Shown here piece by piece: positions 44,609-57,514 of a DNA stretch of 64,000 nt (positions are counted from its first letter, which is position 1; every line of letters starts with the position of its first letter). Under the pieces are notes generated by a model. That model did not search any database. It worked only from the letters and a program-made list of their open reading frames with translations, and was not told where the DNA came from. The translations under genes and the position numbers were made by a program. This DNA is from an uncultured Planctomycetota bacterium. GTDB lineage: Bacteria; Planctomycetota; Planctomycetia; Isosphaerales; Isosphaeraceae. The stretch is from contig CAWGMQ010000005.1 of assembly GCA_963823665.1 (NCBI GenBank), positions 1,472,001-1,536,000 of the forward strand, given 5' to 3'.

Positions 44609-44721
44609 ACTCGCTTCCGGCTGCTGGCCCGGCTCTGCCGGACGGGATTGGTTACCCGCGGGGTTCCAATCGGAGGGTTCACATTTGAGATGATCCTGCT
44701 GTTCCGAGCTTCTTGGCGCAA
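44609..44721 (-). mobile_element. Probable 5' relic of a group II intron (start of domain I)
   Basis: Minus strand begins TTGCGCCAAG.. and contains GGAACCCCGCGGGTAACCAATCCCGTCCGGCAGAGCCGGGCCAGCAGCCGGAAGCGAGT, matching my recollection of bacterial group II intron 5' ends; no RT ORF follows. Confidence 0.6.
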
Positions 44722-44825
44722 TGTCTGGGTTCCCATAGATAAAGCCCCAAGGTGCTACTCTCGCACTTCTTGGAATGGCAACATCTGCTCACAGAATTGA
44801 AGGCTTCCTTCAATACTAATCACGC

Positions 44826-45092: not shown

Positions 45093-45305
45093 GTGATGGC
45101 CGCAAAGCGTACAATGACGCTGAATCTGACAGATGGGGAAATGGCTGCACTCGAAGAGCTTTGTGAGAAGAAGGACCTCTCGAAAACTGCCGTGCTCAGG
45201 CAAGCGCTTAGGCTCTACCAGTTGGTTGATGCGCGCATGGAGCGAGGCGAGAAGCTCTTTTTTGAGGATGATGCCAAGGCAAAAGCAGAGGTCATGGTCC
45301 TGTGA
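45093..45305 (+). CDS. Ribbon-helix-helix (CopG-like) protein, putative antitoxin/autorepressor
   Basis: KRTMTLNLT beta-strand, LEELCEKKDLSKTAVLRQALRLY helices. Confidence 0.85.
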   Translation: MMAAKRTMTLNLTDGEMAALEELCEKKDLSKTAVLRQALRLYQLVDARMERGEKLFFEDDAKAKAEVMVL

Positions 45306-45931
45306 GTGGTGTCGTTATCCAGATTGAGCGGCGACCAACGGGAGAAGTTGACGCAACGCTTTTCGACAACATGGCAGCGGCGGATCTGCTTGTGGTTGAA
45401 AACGAATGGTCGGCCGAGCGGTCTCGGATTATGCAGGAGCTCTTGCAGTTCGCAGTACCTCGGTCGCAGTGGCCGCAGAGCTTGCACTGGGATTGGCGTC
45501 GAAAAGCGCCTGAGCTTAGGCTCCTTGAGTGTTCAGGCTTCGGCATCGCATGCGAGGAAAGCTGGCAAGGGGTCATGCTGACTAAGACAGCCTCGTATAC
45601 AGCGCGGCTGGCGCCGGATCGAGGCAAGCCGCTGGTGTATATCGATTTTCTTGAGGTCGCTCCATGGAACTGGGCGATCCCGGAGCTCGGCCGCATGGGT
45701 CGGTTCCGATCAGTTGGTTCCGTGCTGTTCTGGAGAGCAGTAAAGCAAAGCAAAGAGGAGGGATTTAGAGGACGCGTGGGGCTCCACGCTTTGCCACAAG
45801 CCGAGCAGTTCTATGTGAGAGCATGTGGGATGACGCCATTAGGGCATGATCCCAGCAAAGAGAATCTTTCTTATTTTGAACTGACGAGCGCGCAGGCAAG
45901 CGAGCTCCTTCAACGGGAACAAGAACAATGA
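45302..45931 (+). CDS. GNAT-fold acetyltransferase, putative toxin
   Basis: LVYIDFLEVAPWN, FRSVGSVLF (motif A-like), VGLHALPQAEQFY..CGMT (motif B); GTGA overlap with the RHH gene. Confidence 0.8.
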   Translation: MSGVVIQIERRPTGEVDATLFDNMAAADLLVVENEWSAERSRIMQELLQFAVPRSQWPQSLHWDWRRKAPELRLLECSGFGIACEESWQGVMLTKTASYTARLAPDRGKPLVYIDFLEVAPWNWAIPELGRMGRFRSVGSVLFWRAVKQSKEEGFRGRVGLHALPQAEQFYVRACGMTPLGHDPSKENLSYFELTSAQASELLQREQEQ

Positions 45932-46419
45932 CACACATGAAGAAAGAGCCAGGTCCACCGCGTGAATGGCTGAAGAGAGCAGGGGAAATCGAAGACCACT
46001 GTCGTTCTCTTTCCGTTGCTGGACTCGCATCTGATCTGGGGATGCTTCGAGCAGTAACCTCAGATGTTCAGCCGGTCTTCGGACGGTTAATTGAGTACGC
46101 AAGGCGAAGGCGAGGTTTATCCGTCGAGGAGCTGGCTGAGCAGGCAGACGTTGACCTTGCGGCAGTTGTTGAGATTGAGAGAAATGGCAGAGTGCTGCCG
46201 GAGACTAGAACTGTCTTCCAACTTGCGCAGGTGCTCGATTTGCCAGCCAGTAGGCTGATGGAAGTCGCAGGCCTTGCGTCACCGAAGCCAGAGATTAGTC
46301 ATGCCGCGCTTAGATTCGCGGCGCGTTCAGAACCGACTGCTCAGCTATCCCATGACGAGAGCAGAGCGTTGGAAGAGTTCGTGAAGGTGTTGGTTGAGAC
46401 CTCTGACGGAGCTTCATGA
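45928..46419 (+). CDS. XRE-family HTH protein with N- and C-terminal extensions
   Basis: FGRLIEYARRRRGLSVEELAEQADVDLAAVVEIERN..TVFQLAQVLDL; ATGA overlap with the GNAT gene. Confidence 0.85.
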   Translation: MTHMKKEPGPPREWLKRAGEIEDHCRSLSVAGLASDLGMLRAVTSDVQPVFGRLIEYARRRRGLSVEELAEQADVDLAAVVEIERNGRVLPETRTVFQLAQVLDLPASRLMEVAGLASPKPEISHAALRFAARSEPTAQLSHDESRALEEFVKVLVETSDGAS

Positions 46420-46548
46420 GTTGCAAAACCACTTTTTTGCGCAACTGCCTTCGTGGAGCGAAGGCCGACGATGTTTTCGGCGGGCGCTTTAACTGGCTTG
46501 CTGGCGGCTGCGCGAGCTGGGGCGCTGGGCGGCTCGAAGCGTGCGCGA

Positions 46549-46789
46549 CTTGATGAGCTCATCGCCCTGTATCGACGGGGATTGGTGCAGAAGGCACACG
46601 CGTGGAAGCAAGCGTTGCGCGAGGCCTTCGTGCATCGGTGGACGATGCCGGGGCGGATGCTGATCATGCCGCGTGATCTTGCGGACGATCCCCATGCGCT
46701 GGTGGTGCGGGCGTTCTGGGTGCTCGTGGGCTGGCACCCACCAGATGACGTGTGCCGAAAAAGCTATTTTCGGGTCCTGGCACCTTTTC
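46549..46789 (+). repeat. Copy 1 of a ~240-bp diverged direct repeat (gene 3' fragment plus CCTGGCACCTTTTC motif)
   Basis: Aligns along its length with 57273-57514; encodes ELIALYRRGLVQKAHAWK..RWTMPGRMLIMPRDLADDP. Confidence 0.85.
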
Positions 46790-47090
46790 CCTTTCGGCGA
46801 GAGCTGGGTGCCACGGAGTATTTGGAAAGTGCTAACATATGGTTTGGCGAGCCATGGAAAGTGCTGGAATCTGTTGCCAAGGTACGGGCCGACAGAGGAT
46901 GAGCTCGATTTGCGTGAGGCGCTTGCGGTGTCAGGCTCGGATCGATTCGCATACTCAGCTTTTTTCTTCGATTCGCAGCATTTTGCTTGCGTTTGGAGCT
47001 TTTTGGCCTTCAACTGGGTTGAGTTTCACGTCTGCCCGAATCTGGTTTTGCGTCCCCGCCGCTCGAAGATGCACGAGGGGAAGGTATCCG

Positions 47091-49109
47091 ATGGCCCGCC
47101 CGAAGAAACCGAGCAGTCCCAGGAAAGCACGGCCGCCGAAGCCGAACCTGGCGGATACGCCAGCTTCGCCGAAAGCCGCCGACGGACCCAACAAGAAGAA
47201 ACGTCCGCTTACACAGAAGAATGTCAGCATTCAGCATGCTGAGCGAATCAATCTCTACGCGGCAGCGCCTTACCTATTGTCCCGCACAGAAGAGGCGGTT
47301 GGCCTCAAGTTGGGGGTCGTCACTTATCTGAAAGACCCATCCGTCGCCAAAACTTATCGCAGTTTCGCTCTGGACGAAAACTATCTCGTTGATTGGGAAC
47401 CCGGTCTATCCGATGGTCCGACCAGTGCCCGCTTCGCGGTCGTCGATTTCAGCGCCGATACCGGCCAGCTTGCGCCGCCGGTCGAATGGGACATTGAACG
47501 TCAGGTGTATGGGTTTGAAGGCAAAGACCTTGATAAGGACACGGTCAAGACATTTCAGTTCCATCAGCTCATGGTTTGGGCGCTAGTGCAGCACGCACTC
47601 CAGTATTTCGAGGACGGCAACGGGCTGGGGCGCCGAATACCATGGGCGTTTGAAGGCAATCGTCTCATCGTCGTCCCGCACGCCGGGTATGGAGAAAATG
47701 CCTTTTACGATCGGGAGAGCAAGTCGCTCCAGTTTTATTATTTCGGATCCGGCGAGGACACCGTCTACACGTGCCTTTCGACCGACATCGTCTACCACGA
47801 ATTCGCGCATGCCGTGCTGGACGGAGTGCGGCCTTACTTTAACGCCAGCATTGTCGTGCAGACGGCTGCATTTCACGAGTTCATTGGCGACCTCACCGCG
47901 ATTCTGCTGGTTTTGCGCAACAAAAAGTTTCGCGATGCGCTCGCCGACCAAACTCACGGAAAAATGAAAGACGCGGAAGTGCTGGCGTCGCTGGCGAGGC
48001 AGTTCGGCGAGGCCGTCACCGGCAAGCCGTACCTGCGGAGCGCGTTGAACAAATACAAGATGTCAAAGATGGTGGGGGAAACCAGTGCTCATCTGGTTCC
48101 GCAGGTGCTGGTGGGCGCGATGTTCGACGTGCTCATGAAACTCGTGGAATTCTATCAGAAGGAACCGCCGGAACAACCTGCGAGCGGTGCTCGCACGTTG
48201 CAAAAGCAAAAGCGCAAGGCAACCCCCAAGGAGGCATTCTGGAGAGCCGTCGAGCGGACGCAGAGAATGGCCATCCAGCCGCTTGACTTGCTTCCCCCGG
48301 TGGACGTCACGTTCAAGGACTACGCACGCGCCGTGTGCCGAGCCGAGCAGCTCTCGAATCCGACCGATCCCGAAGGGCATCTCAAGATGCTGATCGAGGT
48401 ATTTCGCACGCGCCAGATATTCGACGCAAAAGATGTTCAGGAGCTTGAAGCTCCACAGTATCTTTACAGCCGCTTGAGACTGAAAGTGTATCTCGACATC
48501 GATGAAGTCTCGCGGTCTCGTGCGTCGGCGTATCGGTTCCTGGACAACAACCGCGAGGAGCTGTTGATCCCGGCGTTCCAGGATTTTTTCGTCGCCGATC
48601 TTTACGATGCGAACAAGCGGACGCGCGAGGGGGCACGGCTGCCTCGCCAGGTGGTGCTCGAGTACCTTTGGCGCGAGGACGTGCCGCTCGTTGGGCCTGA
48701 ATTTGGGGCGTACAACGGGCGATCGACCACGATGCTCTGCGGCGGCACGCTGGTCGTCGACGACAGTGGCAATGTGCTCGCGTGGGCCCGGAAGCCCGGC
48801 ACGCAGGATTTCGGCAAGCAGGCTGAGCACTCCGGCGAAATCGAGCAGAGGTGGAAGGAAGCTGTCAAGGAAGGGACCAATCGCAAACGCGAGTTTCTGG
48901 CCACTCTCAAAACACAGATCGCTGCCGGCCGTGTTGGGGTGGCCATCGGCGGCGAGAAGGGGTTTCTCGGAACGCGAATGCCGCCGCTCGAGGCGGACGA
49001 AAATGACGGTGTTGTGCAATTCCGATTGTCGCCCCACTTGAATCTAAACGGCGACACCGATCTACACGACGAAGCATCTGGAGGCCGGCGATGGGAAACA
49101 AGCTCTTGA
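47091..49109 (+). CDS. Cytoplasmic gluzincin metallopeptidase (thermolysin M4 / fungalysin M36-like)
   Basis: ENAFYD, DIVYHEFAHAVLD (HExxH), AAFHEFIGDL (third-ligand Glu), SAHLVPQVLVGA; no signal peptide; K/P-rich N-tail; probable start MARPKK at 47091. Confidence 0.82.
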   Translation: MARPKKPSSPRKARPPKPNLADTPASPKAADGPNKKKRPLTQKNVSIQHAERINLYAAAPYLLSRTEEAVGLKLGVVTYLKDPSVAKTYRSFALDENYLVDWEPGLSDGPTSARFAVVDFSADTGQLAPPVEWDIERQVYGFEGKDLDKDTVKTFQFHQLMVWALVQHALQYFEDGNGLGRRIPWAFEGNRLIVVPHAGYGENAFYDRESKSLQFYYFGSGEDTVYTCLSTDIVYHEFAHAVLDGVRPYFNASIVVQTAAFHEFIGDLTAILLVLRNKKFRDALADQTHGKMKDAEVLASLARQFGEAVTGKPYLRSALNKYKMSKMVGETSAHLVPQVLVGAMFDVLMKLVEFYQKEPPEQPASGARTLQKQKRKATPKEAFWRAVERTQRMAIQPLDLLPPVDVTFKDYARAVCRAEQLSNPTDPEGHLKMLIEVFRTRQIFDAKDVQELEAPQYLYSRLRLKVYLDIDEVSRSRASAYRFLDNNREELLIPAFQDFFVADLYDANKRTREGARLPRQVVLEYLWREDVPLVGPEFGAYNGRSTTMLCGGTLVVDDSGNVLAWARKPGTQDFGKQAEHSGEIEQRWKEAVKEGTNRKREFLATLKTQIAAGRVGVAIGGEKGFLGTRMPPLEADENDGVVQFRLSPHLNLNGDTDLHDEASGGRRWETSS

Positions 49110-50512
49110 TACGTGCCTACAACGTCGGTTGCGGCGATTGCTTTTATGTTCGCATTCCGAATAAAGGTGACGGCTTTCATATCCTGATCGACTGCGGCAA
49201 GAAAGGGGGCGCGGAGCCTTTGCTCAAGCAGGCGATCGATCACCTGCGGGACACGATGTTGCCCAAAGGAAAAGCCCCGGGAATGAAGCGGCTGGACCTG
49301 ATCGTGGCGACGCATCGTCACGAAGACCACATCAAAGGATTTGATCCGGGCTGGTTCAAGAAGATCGAAGTGAAGAATGTCTGGCTCAGTGCCGTGATGA
49401 ACCCCGATCATCCCCAGGCAGAAAGGGTGCGGAAGCTGCACGACTACGCCCGCACCCAGATGCGAGGGCTCATGGAGAGCGGACTGGCGCTGAGCCCCGA
49501 GGCCGAAATGCTGGCGTCGCTCTACAGTGTCAGCAACGACGTGGCTGACGATTTCCTGATGAAGACACTCAAGGACAAGTTTGGAACCGAACCCAAGTAT
49601 GTGCACGCGGGAATGACGCACAAAGACCTGGGCATGAAGCTCGATGGCGCGCTCATTCGCGTGCTGGCGCCCGAGGAAGACATCGACGGCTATTACCTGG
49701 GCAAGGTCGACGCGAGCTTGAAGGGGCTTCAAGAGGGTGCTGGAGTTTTCATGGATCACTCGCTGCCGGTGGCCGACTCTGTACCCGTGAACATCAGTGC
49801 CGCCGATTTTCGGCTGTTGCAGTCACGACTGCTCTCGAACGCGCTTGGGTTTGCCGAGAAGGACACAACCATCCAGAACAACATGAGTGTGGTGCTTTTG
49901 ATCGAATGGCAAAAGCGGCGACTGCTCTTCGTGGGCGATGCGGAGTGGGCTGGACCGTACAAGAAGGGGAAGCAGAACGGAAGCTGGAACGTGATGTGGG
50001 AGAATCGCAAAGAGCACCTGAACAAGCCGGTGGATTTTCTCAAGATCGGCCATCATGGCAGCTTCAACGCGACGCCGTGGGCGCCCGAAGTCGTGGTCGA
50101 GACGTCCGCAGCGGGCAAGAAGAAGCAGAAACCCGGGGCCGCTCGAGCGGCGGGAAGACCGGCGATCTGCGAGATTCTCGATGCACTGTTGCCGGTTCCC
50201 GCCAAGGGAAAGCCGGCGACCGCCTTGGCGATTGTGTCGACAGAACGCGAGTTTTACCCCACAATTCCTGATGGCGAGCTCCTGGTCGAGCTTGGCAAAC
50301 GAGTGAGCGGGACCAGAGACTACAGCGAACTTCTGCACGGTGTGAAGAAGAATCCGGAGAGCCTCTGGGTCACGACGAAAGCGAAGAAGCACCGGTTCTT
50401 CGAAAGCTACGAGAGGGATTTTCTGGACAAGCATCAACCGCCGCGCACGGACCTGGAATTCGCAGTCACCGGGCAGCCGTTTATCGAGGTTGAGATCGGG
50501 CCTAAGAGGTAA
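49091..50512 (+). CDS. Stand-alone ComEC/Rec2-type metallo-beta-lactamase-fold hydrolase (putative nuclease)
   Basis: NVGCGDC, LIDCG, THRHEDH (HxHxDH), NNMSVV, LFVGDAE, KIGHHGS; no TM or signal peptide; 19-nt overlap with the peptidase gene. Confidence 0.85.
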   Translation: MGNKLLIRAYNVGCGDCFYVRIPNKGDGFHILIDCGKKGGAEPLLKQAIDHLRDTMLPKGKAPGMKRLDLIVATHRHEDHIKGFDPGWFKKIEVKNVWLSAVMNPDHPQAERVRKLHDYARTQMRGLMESGLALSPEAEMLASLYSVSNDVADDFLMKTLKDKFGTEPKYVHAGMTHKDLGMKLDGALIRVLAPEEDIDGYYLGKVDASLKGLQEGAGVFMDHSLPVADSVPVNISAADFRLLQSRLLSNALGFAEKDTTIQNNMSVVLLIEWQKRRLLFVGDAEWAGPYKKGKQNGSWNVMWENRKEHLNKPVDFLKIGHHGSFNATPWAPEVVVETSAAGKKKQKPGAARAAGRPAICEILDALLPVPAKGKPATALAIVSTEREFYPTIPDGELLVELGKRVSGTRDYSELLHGVKKNPESLWVTTKAKKHRFFESYERDFLDKHQPPRTDLEFAVTGQPFIEVEIGPKR

Positions 50513-50693
50513 GACGCGGGACATGAGCACACCGGATGTGCCACGGCCGAAATGCGACCATTGAGTCCACAAGGACTCATGAACAGCGCAACCGACTCGG
50601 CGAAAGTTGGCGAAGGTTGACGCGATGCGCCCGTCCAGCCTAGAGTGGTGGGGTGTGATAATGCAGGAATCGTCCATCTTCGAGGGTAGCGCC

Positions 50694-51728
50694 ATGACCG
50701 CGCCAAACGAGATGAACCGCCGGGCATTCATCAAGACCACCGCCGCCGCCACTGCCACGGCGGCTGTCGCGCCGTCGGCGCGGGCCCAGGACGCGCCGGC
50801 CGACGGCCTGATCCACCGCAACGAGCGGAGCGGCATGCCCTACCGCAAGCTCGGCCGGACGAACTTCATGTGCAGCCACCTCGTTTTCGGCGGCGGGGCG
50901 GCGCTCATGGGCGGGAAGGCCGTTCGGTTGCTCAACGCGGCGTTCGACGTGGGCGTGAACTTCTACGATCTGGGCTCCAACGCCTATTACAAGGGTAGCG
51001 AGCGCGCCTTTGCCCCCTTCCTCGCGGAGCACCGCGGCAAGATCTGGGTCACGTCCAAAGCGCCGTTGCGTCCCATTGACGGCTACGAACCGGGCAAGGC
51101 GTTGACCGCCCAACAAGGCAAGTTTCTGGCCGATCACTGGACGGGGCTGCTCAATGCGAGCCTCACCGATCTGGGTACCGACTATGTGGACGCGTACTAC
51201 CTCATGGGCGTCGGCGAGCCGGAGGTCGTGCAATGCGAGCAACTGCATGAGGCCTTCCTCAAGGCGAAACAGGCCGGGAAGGTGGGGCATTGGGGCGTGA
51301 GTACCCACAAGCGGGCGCAGCAAGTGCTCGAGGCCATGGTTGGAACGGGCTGGTACGACCTCGCCATGATCGCCATCACCCCCGCCGGGTGGTACGACTG
51401 GGATTCGAAGAGTCTCCTCAAGGGCACGCAAACGATGGTCGAGCTTCAACCCACACTGAAGCGCGCCCGGGACTCAGGCATCGGTCTCGTCGGTATGAAG
51501 GCGGCCCGCTACTTATCGTCCCGCGGTGGTAAGGAGTTGGCGAACGCCTTCGACGGGCACTACAACGACAAGCTCATGCAATCGGGGCTTTCGCCCTGGC
51601 AACGGTCCTACGCGTTTGTGATCGCCCACGGCGTCGACGTGGTCAATTCAGACATGCAGAACTTCGCCCATTTCAAAGAGAACCTCACAGCCGTTCAGCG
51701 CTCGGCGGAGCTCTTCGTCAGGGCTTGA
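50694..51728 (+). CDS. Tat-exported aldo/keto reductase
   Basis: NRRAFIK signal; MPYRKLGRT, GVNFYD..YY..SE, SLTDLGTDYVD, GKVGHWGVSTH, GLVGMK. Confidence 0.85.
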   Translation: MTAPNEMNRRAFIKTTAAATATAAVAPSARAQDAPADGLIHRNERSGMPYRKLGRTNFMCSHLVFGGGAALMGGKAVRLLNAAFDVGVNFYDLGSNAYYKGSERAFAPFLAEHRGKIWVTSKAPLRPIDGYEPGKALTAQQGKFLADHWTGLLNASLTDLGTDYVDAYYLMGVGEPEVVQCEQLHEAFLKAKQAGKVGHWGVSTHKRAQQVLEAMVGTGWYDLAMIAITPAGWYDWDSKSLLKGTQTMVELQPTLKRARDSGIGLVGMKAARYLSSRGGKELANAFDGHYNDKLMQSGLSPWQRSYAFVIAHGVDVVNSDMQNFAHFKENLTAVQRSAELFVRA

Positions 51729-52695
51729 TCGACGCCGACCGTTTCGGGATCCTCAGTCCTTTGAGCAGGAACGTCATGGCCTTGACGGCCGCGTCGCGGC
51801 CCTTGACCGCCGTGACGCCGGCGATGACGTCGCCGACCTGGCAGGCGCCGTCGAAGTCGCCGCCGCCCACCTCGGCGAACATGACCGACGCCCCTTCGAT
51901 TTTGGCCGGTTCGGCCATGTCGCCAAATTCTTCGAGGTGGGCCTTGTACTTGGCCAGGACTTCTGCGGCGTTATCAGCCGATTTGCAGCGCGCGACGAAG
52001 CCGGTGAACCTGGCCTCGCCGTCGCGGTACTGGGCCATGAACGCGTTGGTCAGGAAGTCGAGCCCCAGGGCATCGACCATGAGGTATTGGACCGTATCGT
52101 CGATCCGATTCTTCGCCGGGAGCATCGCGAGACCCCATAGCTCCGCCGCTTCGCCTTTCAGACGAATAGCCAGTGTATCGGCCAAGGCCGTTACCGCTTT
52201 CTGGACCTCCTCGTCGGGTCCCGATGTCAGGATCGACGCATAGTATTGGCCCTTCCGGAAGAATAAATCCGCCTTGGTGCGGTGGCCGCCGTCGCCGGTT
52301 GCGATGGCCTTGCTGCCAGACGAGCGCTCGACCGAATAGACGCCGAAGGCGCCGAGGGGGGTGGTCATGTCGTAGAGGAAGACGTCGATGAATTTGGCTG
52401 GGTTGTCCGCTTTGGAGAAGGTGACGAAGGTCATGCCCGTCACGTCGTAGGATTGAAACAGTTCGGACCGGCCGTTGATCTTCTCGTACAAGTTGGCTTC
52501 GGTGTAGCGTTCAACCAGGCTCTTTTTCGTGAAGCCTCCGGGCGTGAGACCCTCGAGTGCCCGGGCGATGGTTTCCGTCTTCGCCTTCATTTCGGGCGTG
52601 ATCCGGGGGGCGGCGTCTTTGACGGAGCCGACGGAGTCTTGGGCGGCGACGAAGACGGGGAATACAAACGGGATCGCGGCCAGCAATCCTCCCAT
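51718..52695 (-). CDS. Secreted DUF6599-like protein
   Basis: Signal peptide; NLYEKINGRSELF..IDVFLYDM.TPLGAFGVYSVER..LFFRKGQYY. Confidence 0.65.
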   Translation of the reverse strand: MGGLLAAIPFVFPVFVAAQDSVGSVKDAAPRITPEMKAKTETIARALEGLTPGGFTKKSLVERYTEANLYEKINGRSELFQSYDVTGMTFVTFSKADNPAKFIDVFLYDMTTPLGAFGVYSVERSSGSKAIATGDGGHRTKADLFFRKGQYYASILTSGPDEEVQKAVTALADTLAIRLKGEAAELWGLAMLPAKNRIDDTVQYLMVDALGLDFLTNAFMAQYRDGEARFTGFVARCKSADNAAEVLAKYKAHLEEFGDMAEPAKIEGASVMFAEVGGGDFDGACQVGDVIAGVTAVKGRDAAVKAMTFLLKGLRIPKRSASIKP

Positions 52696-52765
52696 GGGAT
52701 ACTCCTTTTTCGGGGCTGTTTTTACGGTATGGGATCGACGCCGCGAAAAGCAAGACCTTCGGAGT

Positions 52766-57272: not shown

Positions 57273-57514
57273 CTTGAGGAGCTCATCGCCTTTTATCGAC
57301 GGGGATTGGTGCAGAAAGCAGGCGCATGGAAGGAAGCAGTGGCGCGAGGCGTCCGAGCGTCGGTGGACGATGCCGGGGCAGATGCTGATCATGCCGCGTG
57401 GTCTTGCGGACGACCCTGACGCGGTGGTTGTTCGTGCAGACTGGGTTCTCGCGGGCGGGCATCAATCAGATGACGTGTGACGCGAACGAGGTTTTTGGTT
57501 CCTGGCACCTTTTC
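57273..57514 (+). repeat. Copy 2 of the ~240-bp direct repeat
   Basis: Aligns with 46549-46789; encodes ELIAFYRRGLVQKAGAWK / RWTMPGQMLIMPRGLADDP..SDDV*. Confidence 0.85.

Follow-up and report, generated by a model that had tools for sequence, protein, structure and literature searches.

What might a peptidase and a nuclease-like hydrolase do together when their genes overlap and both catalytic sites are intact? This question is raised by two genes on a 64,000-nt stretch of contig CAWGMQ010000005.1 (assembly GCA_963823665.1; an uncultured planctomycete of the Isosphaeraceae), hereafter the window: a gluzincin metallopeptidase gene (protein P0001) followed by the gene of a ComEC-type metallo-β-lactamase-fold (MBL) hydrolase (protein P0002). 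The initial annotation, made from the sequence alone, had proposed a two-gene conflict module in which the peptidase senses a trigger and activates or releases the MBL effector. Overall, the pair is a strongly conserved two-gene module whose build resembles that of the protease-gated MBL nucleases, but which lies outside the trypsin and caspase families; these nucleases were described in 2025 as antiviral, widespread, and activated by trypsins and caspases (PMC12799240; 10.1101/2025.11.14.688446). By analogy with these systems, we estimate a probability of about 55% that the pair is a metalloprotease-gated pro-nuclease, in which the two proteins would be co-translated and the MBL would stay latent, becoming lethal once the peptidase cuts its insertions.

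The pairing of the two genes goes far beyond chance. P0001 and P0002 each had more than 1,300 relatives at E 1e-10 among 8,000 candidates scored. When genome loci were anchored on the peptidase (the best 80 of 149 confirmed), the MBL gene was directly downstream in 77 out of 80, and the remaining three contigs ended inside the peptidase, leaving 77 out of 77 informative loci. When metagenome loci were anchored on the MBL (the best 80 of 288), the peptidase was upstream in all 58 loci with at least 250 nt of upstream sequence, the other 22 having too little (< 250 nt). The adjacency seen at this one locus is thus conserved in both sets. The genome loci came from seven phyla (Planctomycetota, Acidobacteriota, Pseudomonadota, Bacteroidota, Chloroflexota, Gemmatimonadota, and Verrucomicrobiota), with hosts mostly among Acidobacteriota, Planctomycetota, rhizobia, and Bacteroidota, and phyla were intermixed in the family tree. 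The distribution was patchy: a family member was present in at least 14 of 301 genomes of the phylum, and the pair was not found at the DNA level in 40 host relatives, among them an 84% complete genome of the same genus in which the downstream genes are present with 94% identity. A pattern scan of viral contigs found no relative of either protein.

The 19-nt overlap of the two genes, already noted in the initial annotation, was exactly 19 nt in all 139 loci (out of 160, some of them close kin) in which the MBL start could be aligned. This start was ATG or GTG in each of the 139 loci and was preceded by a Shine-Dalgarno-like word in 126 of them. Translational coupling through this overlap is probable and would yield the two proteins at the same time. 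Programmed frameshifting at the overlap was rejected, as no slippery heptamer occurs in the required frame and the Shine-Dalgarno word and ATG/GTG start are kept. Judging from the sequence, the peptidase likely starts at 47091, because the extension of 84 codons from an in-frame upstream ATG at 46839 was unmatched in 160 related loci and a strong Shine-Dalgarno site lies ahead of 47091; a longer peptidase with a signal peptide, beginning at 46839, was rejected since this extension is unconserved. A crude Kyte-Doolittle hydrophobicity test (not SignalP) detected a hydrophobic N-terminal window in 3 out of 121 peptidases and 0 out of 120 MBLs and a transmembrane-like window in none of either set, in agreement with the initial description of both proteins as free of signal peptides and transmembrane segments; the MBL therefore has no membrane competence domain. 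A promoter and terminator scan of the locus gave only chance-level matches.

The structure of P0001 was predicted with AlphaFold2 from 121 sequences (predicted local distance difference test, pLDDT, 84). In this model, residues 74-454 match the M36 fungalysin 7qp3 (Z 28.5; root-mean-square deviation, rmsd, 3.4; 318 aligned residues), and the match to thermolysin reached Z 22.4. The catalytic motifs named at the outset are intact: N203/A204, H236/E237/H240, H262/E263/D267, and H334 were invariant in all 121 aligned peptidases, and the zinc ligands and catalytic residues were nearly invariant in 80 diverse relatives. With an HExxH motif and a downstream Glu as third ligand on a thermolysin-like fold, which characterise the gluzincin clan, P0001 is, on its sequence and model, an intact gluzincin rather than the serine protease that the NCBI labels of its relatives suggest. 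The Pfam M4 match was sub-threshold (E 1.2e-3; 19.7 bits versus a gathering threshold of 22.4), the Pfam M36 model gave no match at E 0.1, and no S8 domain was found in the Pfam scan. Moreover, no PADLOC or NCBIfam model matched P0001, and a PDB sequence search returned nothing significant.

Because the gluzincin fold reaches approximately residue 454, the C-terminal part without an assigned family corresponds to about 200 folded residues and a disordered tail; the extension past the core reported initially is therefore real, but smaller than the 250 aa then suggested. Residues 455-650 matched no named family, although this region was not searched alone, and an ESM Atlas search with residues 455-655 returned only unnamed clusters at 0.80 or below, a lead at best. 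The folded region ends in H649, which was invariant in 121 out of 121 close relatives. Its column was not conserved in alignment A3 (13 out of 80), in which the C-termini align poorly, and motifs were therefore counted there: an [LFMP]H word was present in the last 40 residues of 66 of the 80 diverse relatives, whereas the background frequency in windows was 18%, and all 32 S8 fusions terminate in an F-x2-3-H word. This conserved histidine may bind zinc autoinhibitorily. The Lys-rich stretches that the initial annotation had pointed out are present, but they are of low confidence in the models (residues 1-36 of the peptidase and also residues 337-344) and vary among relatives, the N-terminal one being missing from the wider family.

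The model of the MBL (pLDDT 84) was most similar to the ComEC nuclease domain 9ic4 (Z 25.1, rmsd 2.7, 253 aligned residues), which bears out the ComEC-type assignment. H75/H77/D79/H80, D283, and H321/H322 were invariant in all 119 aligned MBLs. P0002 has a Pfam match to Lactamase_B, and its best matches in the defence libraries, all weak, were to models of gated antiphage MBLs, namely LmuA (E 1.8e-19), RTasMBL (E 2.9e-13), and Avs1a; they fell far below the NCBIfam cut-offs, with 44.5 versus 420 bits for the Avs1a equivalog and 36.9 versus 220 bits for 6A-MBL. The ComEC model TIGR00361 scored 22 bits versus a cut-off of 190, the PDB sequence search with P0002 gave weak ComEC matches only, and ESM Atlas returned generic MBL clusters. 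Large insertions are present in the MBL, since 208 aa separate its HxHxDH and GD motifs, versus 86 to 101 aa in three ComEC proteins. The same spacing ranged from 141 to 206 aa in the trypsin-paired, caspase-paired, plain-S8-paired, and solo MBLs of the loci collected here, with the false regex values of L048, L173, and L175c and the unmatched L035 and L214 set aside. In the model and alignment, the extra length consists of two mostly helical insertions, modelled with lower confidence and including a variable linker.

The gluzincin-paired MBLs formed one branch (SH-aLRT, a Shimodaira-Hasegawa-like approximate likelihood ratio test, 99) apart from trypsin-paired, caspase-paired, and plain-S8-paired MBLs and from ComEC, in quick trees whose reference rows are few and long-branched, with two trypsin-type rows, one of them without a Pfam trypsin match. 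L215 and L174b (long branch) were left out of the later trees, and 13 more rows were thinned. The plain-S8-paired MBLs (L074, L175, L217) grouped with the trypsin and caspase MBLs, and it is to these clades that the published protease-gated antiphage DNases belong. A grouping of MBLs from S8-gluzincin fusions with plain-S8 MBLs was rejected by the approximately unbiased test (p-AU 1e-64), and on this basis identity of the family with plain S8-MBL pairs was rejected as well. A tree joining all protease-paired MBLs, as opposed to ComEC and solo MBLs, was not rejected (p-AU 0.17).

A profile search for the wider family returned 3,296 clusters at E 0.001, among which the gluzincin occurs in standalone, tandem-duplicated, and fused forms. 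At the N-terminus, 32 of the 33 longer homologs carry an S8 subtilase and the remaining one carries leucine-rich repeats (LRR). The 28 wider-family loci that we examined comprise 14 plasmid records chosen by hand out of 67, all 13 matches in the phylum apart from the self-match, and one second system in the window's genome. In the 22 loci scoring at least 200 bits, the MBL was the next gene in 20, lay behind a transposase in one, and was missing in one, and S8 was fused to the gluzincin in only three. The gluzincin is thus the constant partner and S8 is optional, even though NCBI labels the S8-free members of the family "serine protease". An MBL was found beside none of the six weaker, mostly shorter gluzincin relatives (< 200 bits).

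These six weaker relatives are in loci L203-L206, L210, and L211, and one of them adjoins a radical S-adenosylmethionine cluster for ribosomally synthesised and post-translationally modified peptides. The second, divergent system in the window's genome (G000:C4, about 1,078,700-1,084,200; L177:6744-12214, minus strand) consists of a tandem double gluzincin and a following MBL, with an astacin-like peptidase upstream; frameshifts, due to either sequencing error or decay, break the double gluzincin into three open reading frames (ORFs). In the close family, the peptidase P0261 begins with an LRR region of about 600 aa, which appears to be a sensor-like fusion, and ends in the W-E-I-S-F overlap motif. 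In one planctomycete metagenome-assembled genome (MAG; L001), in-frame nonsense codons were observed in both genes.

How such a pair could work is suggested by systems that the initial annotation did not know: the logic in which a protease activates an MBL DNase was already published in 2025 for trypsin and caspase partners. A trypsin-like partner cuts MBL pro-nucleases at two insertions and thereby turns them into DNases (Tuck et al., PMC12799240; Evans et al., 10.1101/2025.11.14.688446 / PMC12642450), protease-dependent activation has been extended to the caspase system Canu (Tuck et al., PMC12799240), and a third, uncharacterised MBL clade occurs next to S8 proteases (Evans et al., 10.1101/2025.11.14.688446). 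Following the trypsin-MBL and caspase-MBL systems, a trigger would activate the cytoplasmic peptidase in the infected cell, and the active peptidase would cut the MBL insertions and release a predicted cell-killing DNase; the zymogen state, the site-specific cleavage, the DNA substrate, and the outcome as abortive infection are all modelled on those systems, and we infer both the trigger and the antiphage role. With a specificity like that of thermolysin, the cuts would be expected ahead of conserved hydrophobic residues of the insertions, such as V147 and I235. More speculatively, the C-terminal region might hold the peptidase off, with the conserved histidine as zinc ligand, and the trigger might be received by this region or by a fused S8, second gluzincin, or LRR domain. 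A bolder version, which we put forward only tentatively, would make the pair a self-contained immune switch of an undescribed multi-phylum family: the gluzincin would be His-locked at its own C-terminus until an invader protein displaces or cuts the tail, or until a fused subtilase or second gluzincin acts in a two-step cascade, and would then open an MBL DNase whose gate evolved independently of the trypsin and caspase systems.

Several observations weigh against the pro-nuclease reading. Neighbouring genes within 4 kb were compared by PADLOC between 21 random loci out of 61 from the close family and 20 control stretches, and no raw enrichment was seen (7 matches in 147 genes versus 10 in 128). 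The close-family matches were HamB (twice), PtuA, PtuB, a restriction-modification enzyme, SoFic, and one generic match, while the control matches (seven to mad3, all of them short, and one each to a kinase, a dGTPase, and a desulfurase) have the appearance of paralogs with housekeeping roles. Only 3 of the 21 loci had defence-like neighbours, and most neighbours were metabolic, transport, or regulatory. In the wider family, PADLOC at E 1e-20 matched 21 of 134 neighbours in 20 loci, a figure driven by plasmid loci that were hand-picked and have no plasmid-matched control (a match at 7 out of 10); only 1 out of 10 loci from whole genomes had a match. The insertions appear mostly helical in the model rather than as disordered loops, and the second-best fold match of the MBL was the phosphorylcholine esterase Pce (Z 20.7). 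Moreover, the known gated clades are about equally distant from the gluzincin-MBL lineage and from ComEC, and the trees neither demonstrate nor reject common ancestry of this lineage with those clades. Between peptidase and MBL, pairwise identities are correlated (Spearman 0.88 for 50 pairs, 0.65 for 31 close pairs), as is expected of linked genes whatever their function, and no third gene or sensor was conserved beside the pair.

Enrichment near defence genes, which the initial annotation had suggested as a check, was not seen in raw counts among close relatives, whereas divergent plasmid members were found in defence islands. In the plasmid locus L208, CBASS, patatin, and Hachiman genes surround the pair; Dsr2 and SIR2 lie near it in L171, and E1-E2 in L173 and L174; in L175, FRG and a plain S8-MBL pair lie near the gluzincin pair. 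Around the pair in the window itself, there is no defence island. Of the proposed conflict module, what stands is a conserved, patchily distributed pair with intact sites and an MBL that looks built like the gated ones, and no sensor or trigger was identified.

Of three rival explanations, the first, which we regard as unlikely, is a coupled hydrolase cassette with a substrate other than DNA: the MBL would be a Pce-like phosphoesterase or esterase acting on lipids or the cell envelope, matured by the peptidase or working with it, in scavenging or membrane-directed toxicity. The fold comparison that places Pce second places ComEC more than 4 Z units higher. Patatins and DUF2235/Tle1-like hydrolases, each recurring in 10 of 161 loci, would fit a lipid substrate, as would the LCAT-like and phospholipase D genes adjoining wider-family members, but patatins and DUF2235 hydrolases are also found inside defence islands. 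The mostly metabolic neighbours and the lack of raw defence enrichment likewise speak for such a cassette, yet the two proteins lack an export signal, no metabolic or transport gene consistently accompanies them, and the distribution is sporadic.

It is distinctly unlikely, in our view, that the same protease gate operates in a role other than antiphage defence, with general stress, a plasmid, a predator, or, in soil bacteria with large genomes, developmental cell death as the trigger. No phage-sensing domain was found, the hosts are mainly Acidobacteriota, Planctomycetota, rhizobia, and Bacteroidota, and close relatives lie mostly outside defence islands; divergent members, however, do lie in phage-defence islands, and the characterised protease-MBL pairs in the cited papers are all antiphage.

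Least probable is a toxin-antitoxin arrangement, an addiction or stress module in which the MBL would be active as made and the co-translated peptidase would neutralise it by binding or degradation: the strict pairing, the upstream position of the peptidase, and the fixed overlap suggest enforced co-translation and the family is common on plasmids (67 records), but the MBL has gate-like insertions, the protease activates the MBL in related published systems, and L002, a single planctomycete MAG, leans towards an activator rather than an antitoxin: a nonsense codon interrupts its peptidase ahead of the catalytic motif, whereas its MBL frame is uninterrupted, even if the MBL could be silenced through translational coupling.

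Features of the peptidase-MBL locus, in positions of the window
Feature	Position	Strand	Basis
Shine-Dalgarno-like site ahead of the peptidase ATG	47075..47084	+	sequence
Gluzincin metallopeptidase gene (P0001, 672 aa)	47091..49109	+	ORF, sequence
Peptidase N-terminus, residues 1-36, basic, disordered	within 47091..49109	+	AlphaFold2 model
M36/M4-fold catalytic domain, residues ~74-454 (NAFY, HEFAH at 236-240, E263, D267, H334)	47310..48452	+	structure match and invariance
Folded C-terminal region (β-sheet, long helix, hairpin), ending in H649	48453..49040	+	AlphaFold2 model
H649, candidate autoinhibitory zinc ligand	49035-49037	+	invariance in close relatives
GGAGG ribosome-binding site of the MBL gene, within the peptidase coding sequence	49080..49084	+	sequence
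Dual-coding overlap, 19 nt (peptidase W-E-x-S-x-stop over MBL M-G-N-x-L-L)	49091..49109	+	
ComEC-type MBL hydrolase gene (P0002, 473 aa), predicted pro-nuclease	49091..50512	+	ORF, sequence
MBL motifs THRHEDH (74-80), D283, GHHGS (320-324)	within 49091..50512	+	
MBL insertion 1, ~residues 103-164, helical, candidate gating segment (approximate boundaries)	49397..49582	+	
MBL insertion 2, ~residues 196-264, variable low-confidence linker then conserved helix, candidate gating segment (approximate boundaries)	49676..49882	+	

A short way upstream of the peptidase, at 45302-46419, two overlapping genes encode a 209-aa protein without a Pfam match and an XRE-type helix-turn-helix protein. These genes were considered as part of the system and rejected, as similar DNA is present in G607 and G614, where the pair is missing, and as these genes were not recurrent neighbours of the pair. 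Downstream, at 50600-52760, Tat-signal aldo-keto reductase and DUF6599 genes were observed, with a 96% duplicate about 25 kb further along the contig; five relatives also carry these genes, at 82-95%. Positions 46490-46790 and 57273-57514 hold an element of about 300 bp, of which this genome and G606 contain several divergent copies, and a shorter repeat near 44610-44735 recurs in many members of the family. At other loci, an S1/P1 nuclease gene abuts the pair, upstream in the rhizobial L056, L059, L061, L064, and L067 and downstream in L172. Finally, in L213 and L215 an LmuA-like MBL is preceded by a gene with a patatin-like N-terminus (identified by eye), possibly another MBL module.

If the pro-nuclease reading is true, metalloproteases would be a fourth activator class of protease-gated MBL nucleases, after trypsin, caspase, and the noted S8 clade, and the gluzincin lineage may represent an independent origin of gating from ComEC-like ancestors. 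The pair appears to work without an NTPase sensor, which makes the way in which it is triggered a direct question. The annotation is also corrected, from the NCBI label of serine protease to a constant zinc gluzincin domain. With only two genes, present in cultured soil bacteria and on plasmids, the module is easy to test, and Paludibaculum fermentans (L019) and Phyllobacterium (L169) are among the non-pathogenic hosts of homologs.

When compared with known peptidases, P0001 has its fold and zinc site in common with M36 fungalysins and M4 thermolysin-like peptidases, but is only 11-16% identical to them, falls below the Pfam M4 cut-off, lacks a hydrophobic signal segment, and has an extra C-terminal domain of about 200 aa. 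Protealysin is partnered by the small inhibitor emfourin, whereas the partner of P0001 is an MBL. The general statement of the initial annotation that M4/M36 peptidases are normally secreted has an exception in protealysin, described as intracellular in the available text of PMC9505478. As for P0002, the metal ligands of its best fold match, the ComEC nuclease domain, are present, but the competence domain is missing and about 220 of the 473 residues lie outside the aligned core.

No metallopeptidase-MBL pair was found in the literature searched, which left most subscription journals outside, in line with the initial annotation, which knew of no named system with this pairing. The main texts of PMC12799240 and 10.1101/2025.11.14.688446 do not mention a metallopeptidase, although their supplements may include the pair, and none was described in the available text of 10.1101/2025.09.03.673762, 10.1101/2025.09.30.679545, PMC7159879, PMC13069673, or PMC12419801. 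The trypsin-MBL systems (HamMAB, Avs1a/Avs2/Avs4-MBL, Lamassu, and DRT; PMC12799240, 10.1101/2025.11.14.688446) likewise have a standalone ComEC-like MBL with two insertions and a tightly linked protease. Here, in contrast, the partner is a zinc gluzincin, encoded upstream with a 19-nt overlap and usually without a fused known sensor, the insertions are larger and mostly helical, and the MBL lineage is separate.

Canu (KaeCanABC; PMC12799240) resembles the pair in having the protease gene upstream and the MBL gene downstream, standalone proteins, and a characterised locus without an NTPase sensor. It differs in its caspase with an immunoglobulin-like fold and in the accessory CanB, whereas here a gluzincin has an extra C-terminal domain and no third gene is conserved; caspase-adjacent MBLs from the loci collected here also group away from the gluzincin-paired ones. 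Plain S8 subtilase and LmuA-like MBL pairs without a gluzincin were observed at L074:230-3857, L175:12075-15255, and L217:56-2817, and are probable members of the published subtilisin-adjacent clade. Compared by description with this clade (Clade 3 of Evans et al., 10.1101/2025.11.14.688446), some wider-family members do have S8 before the gluzincin, whereas the peptidase of the window has no S8 domain.

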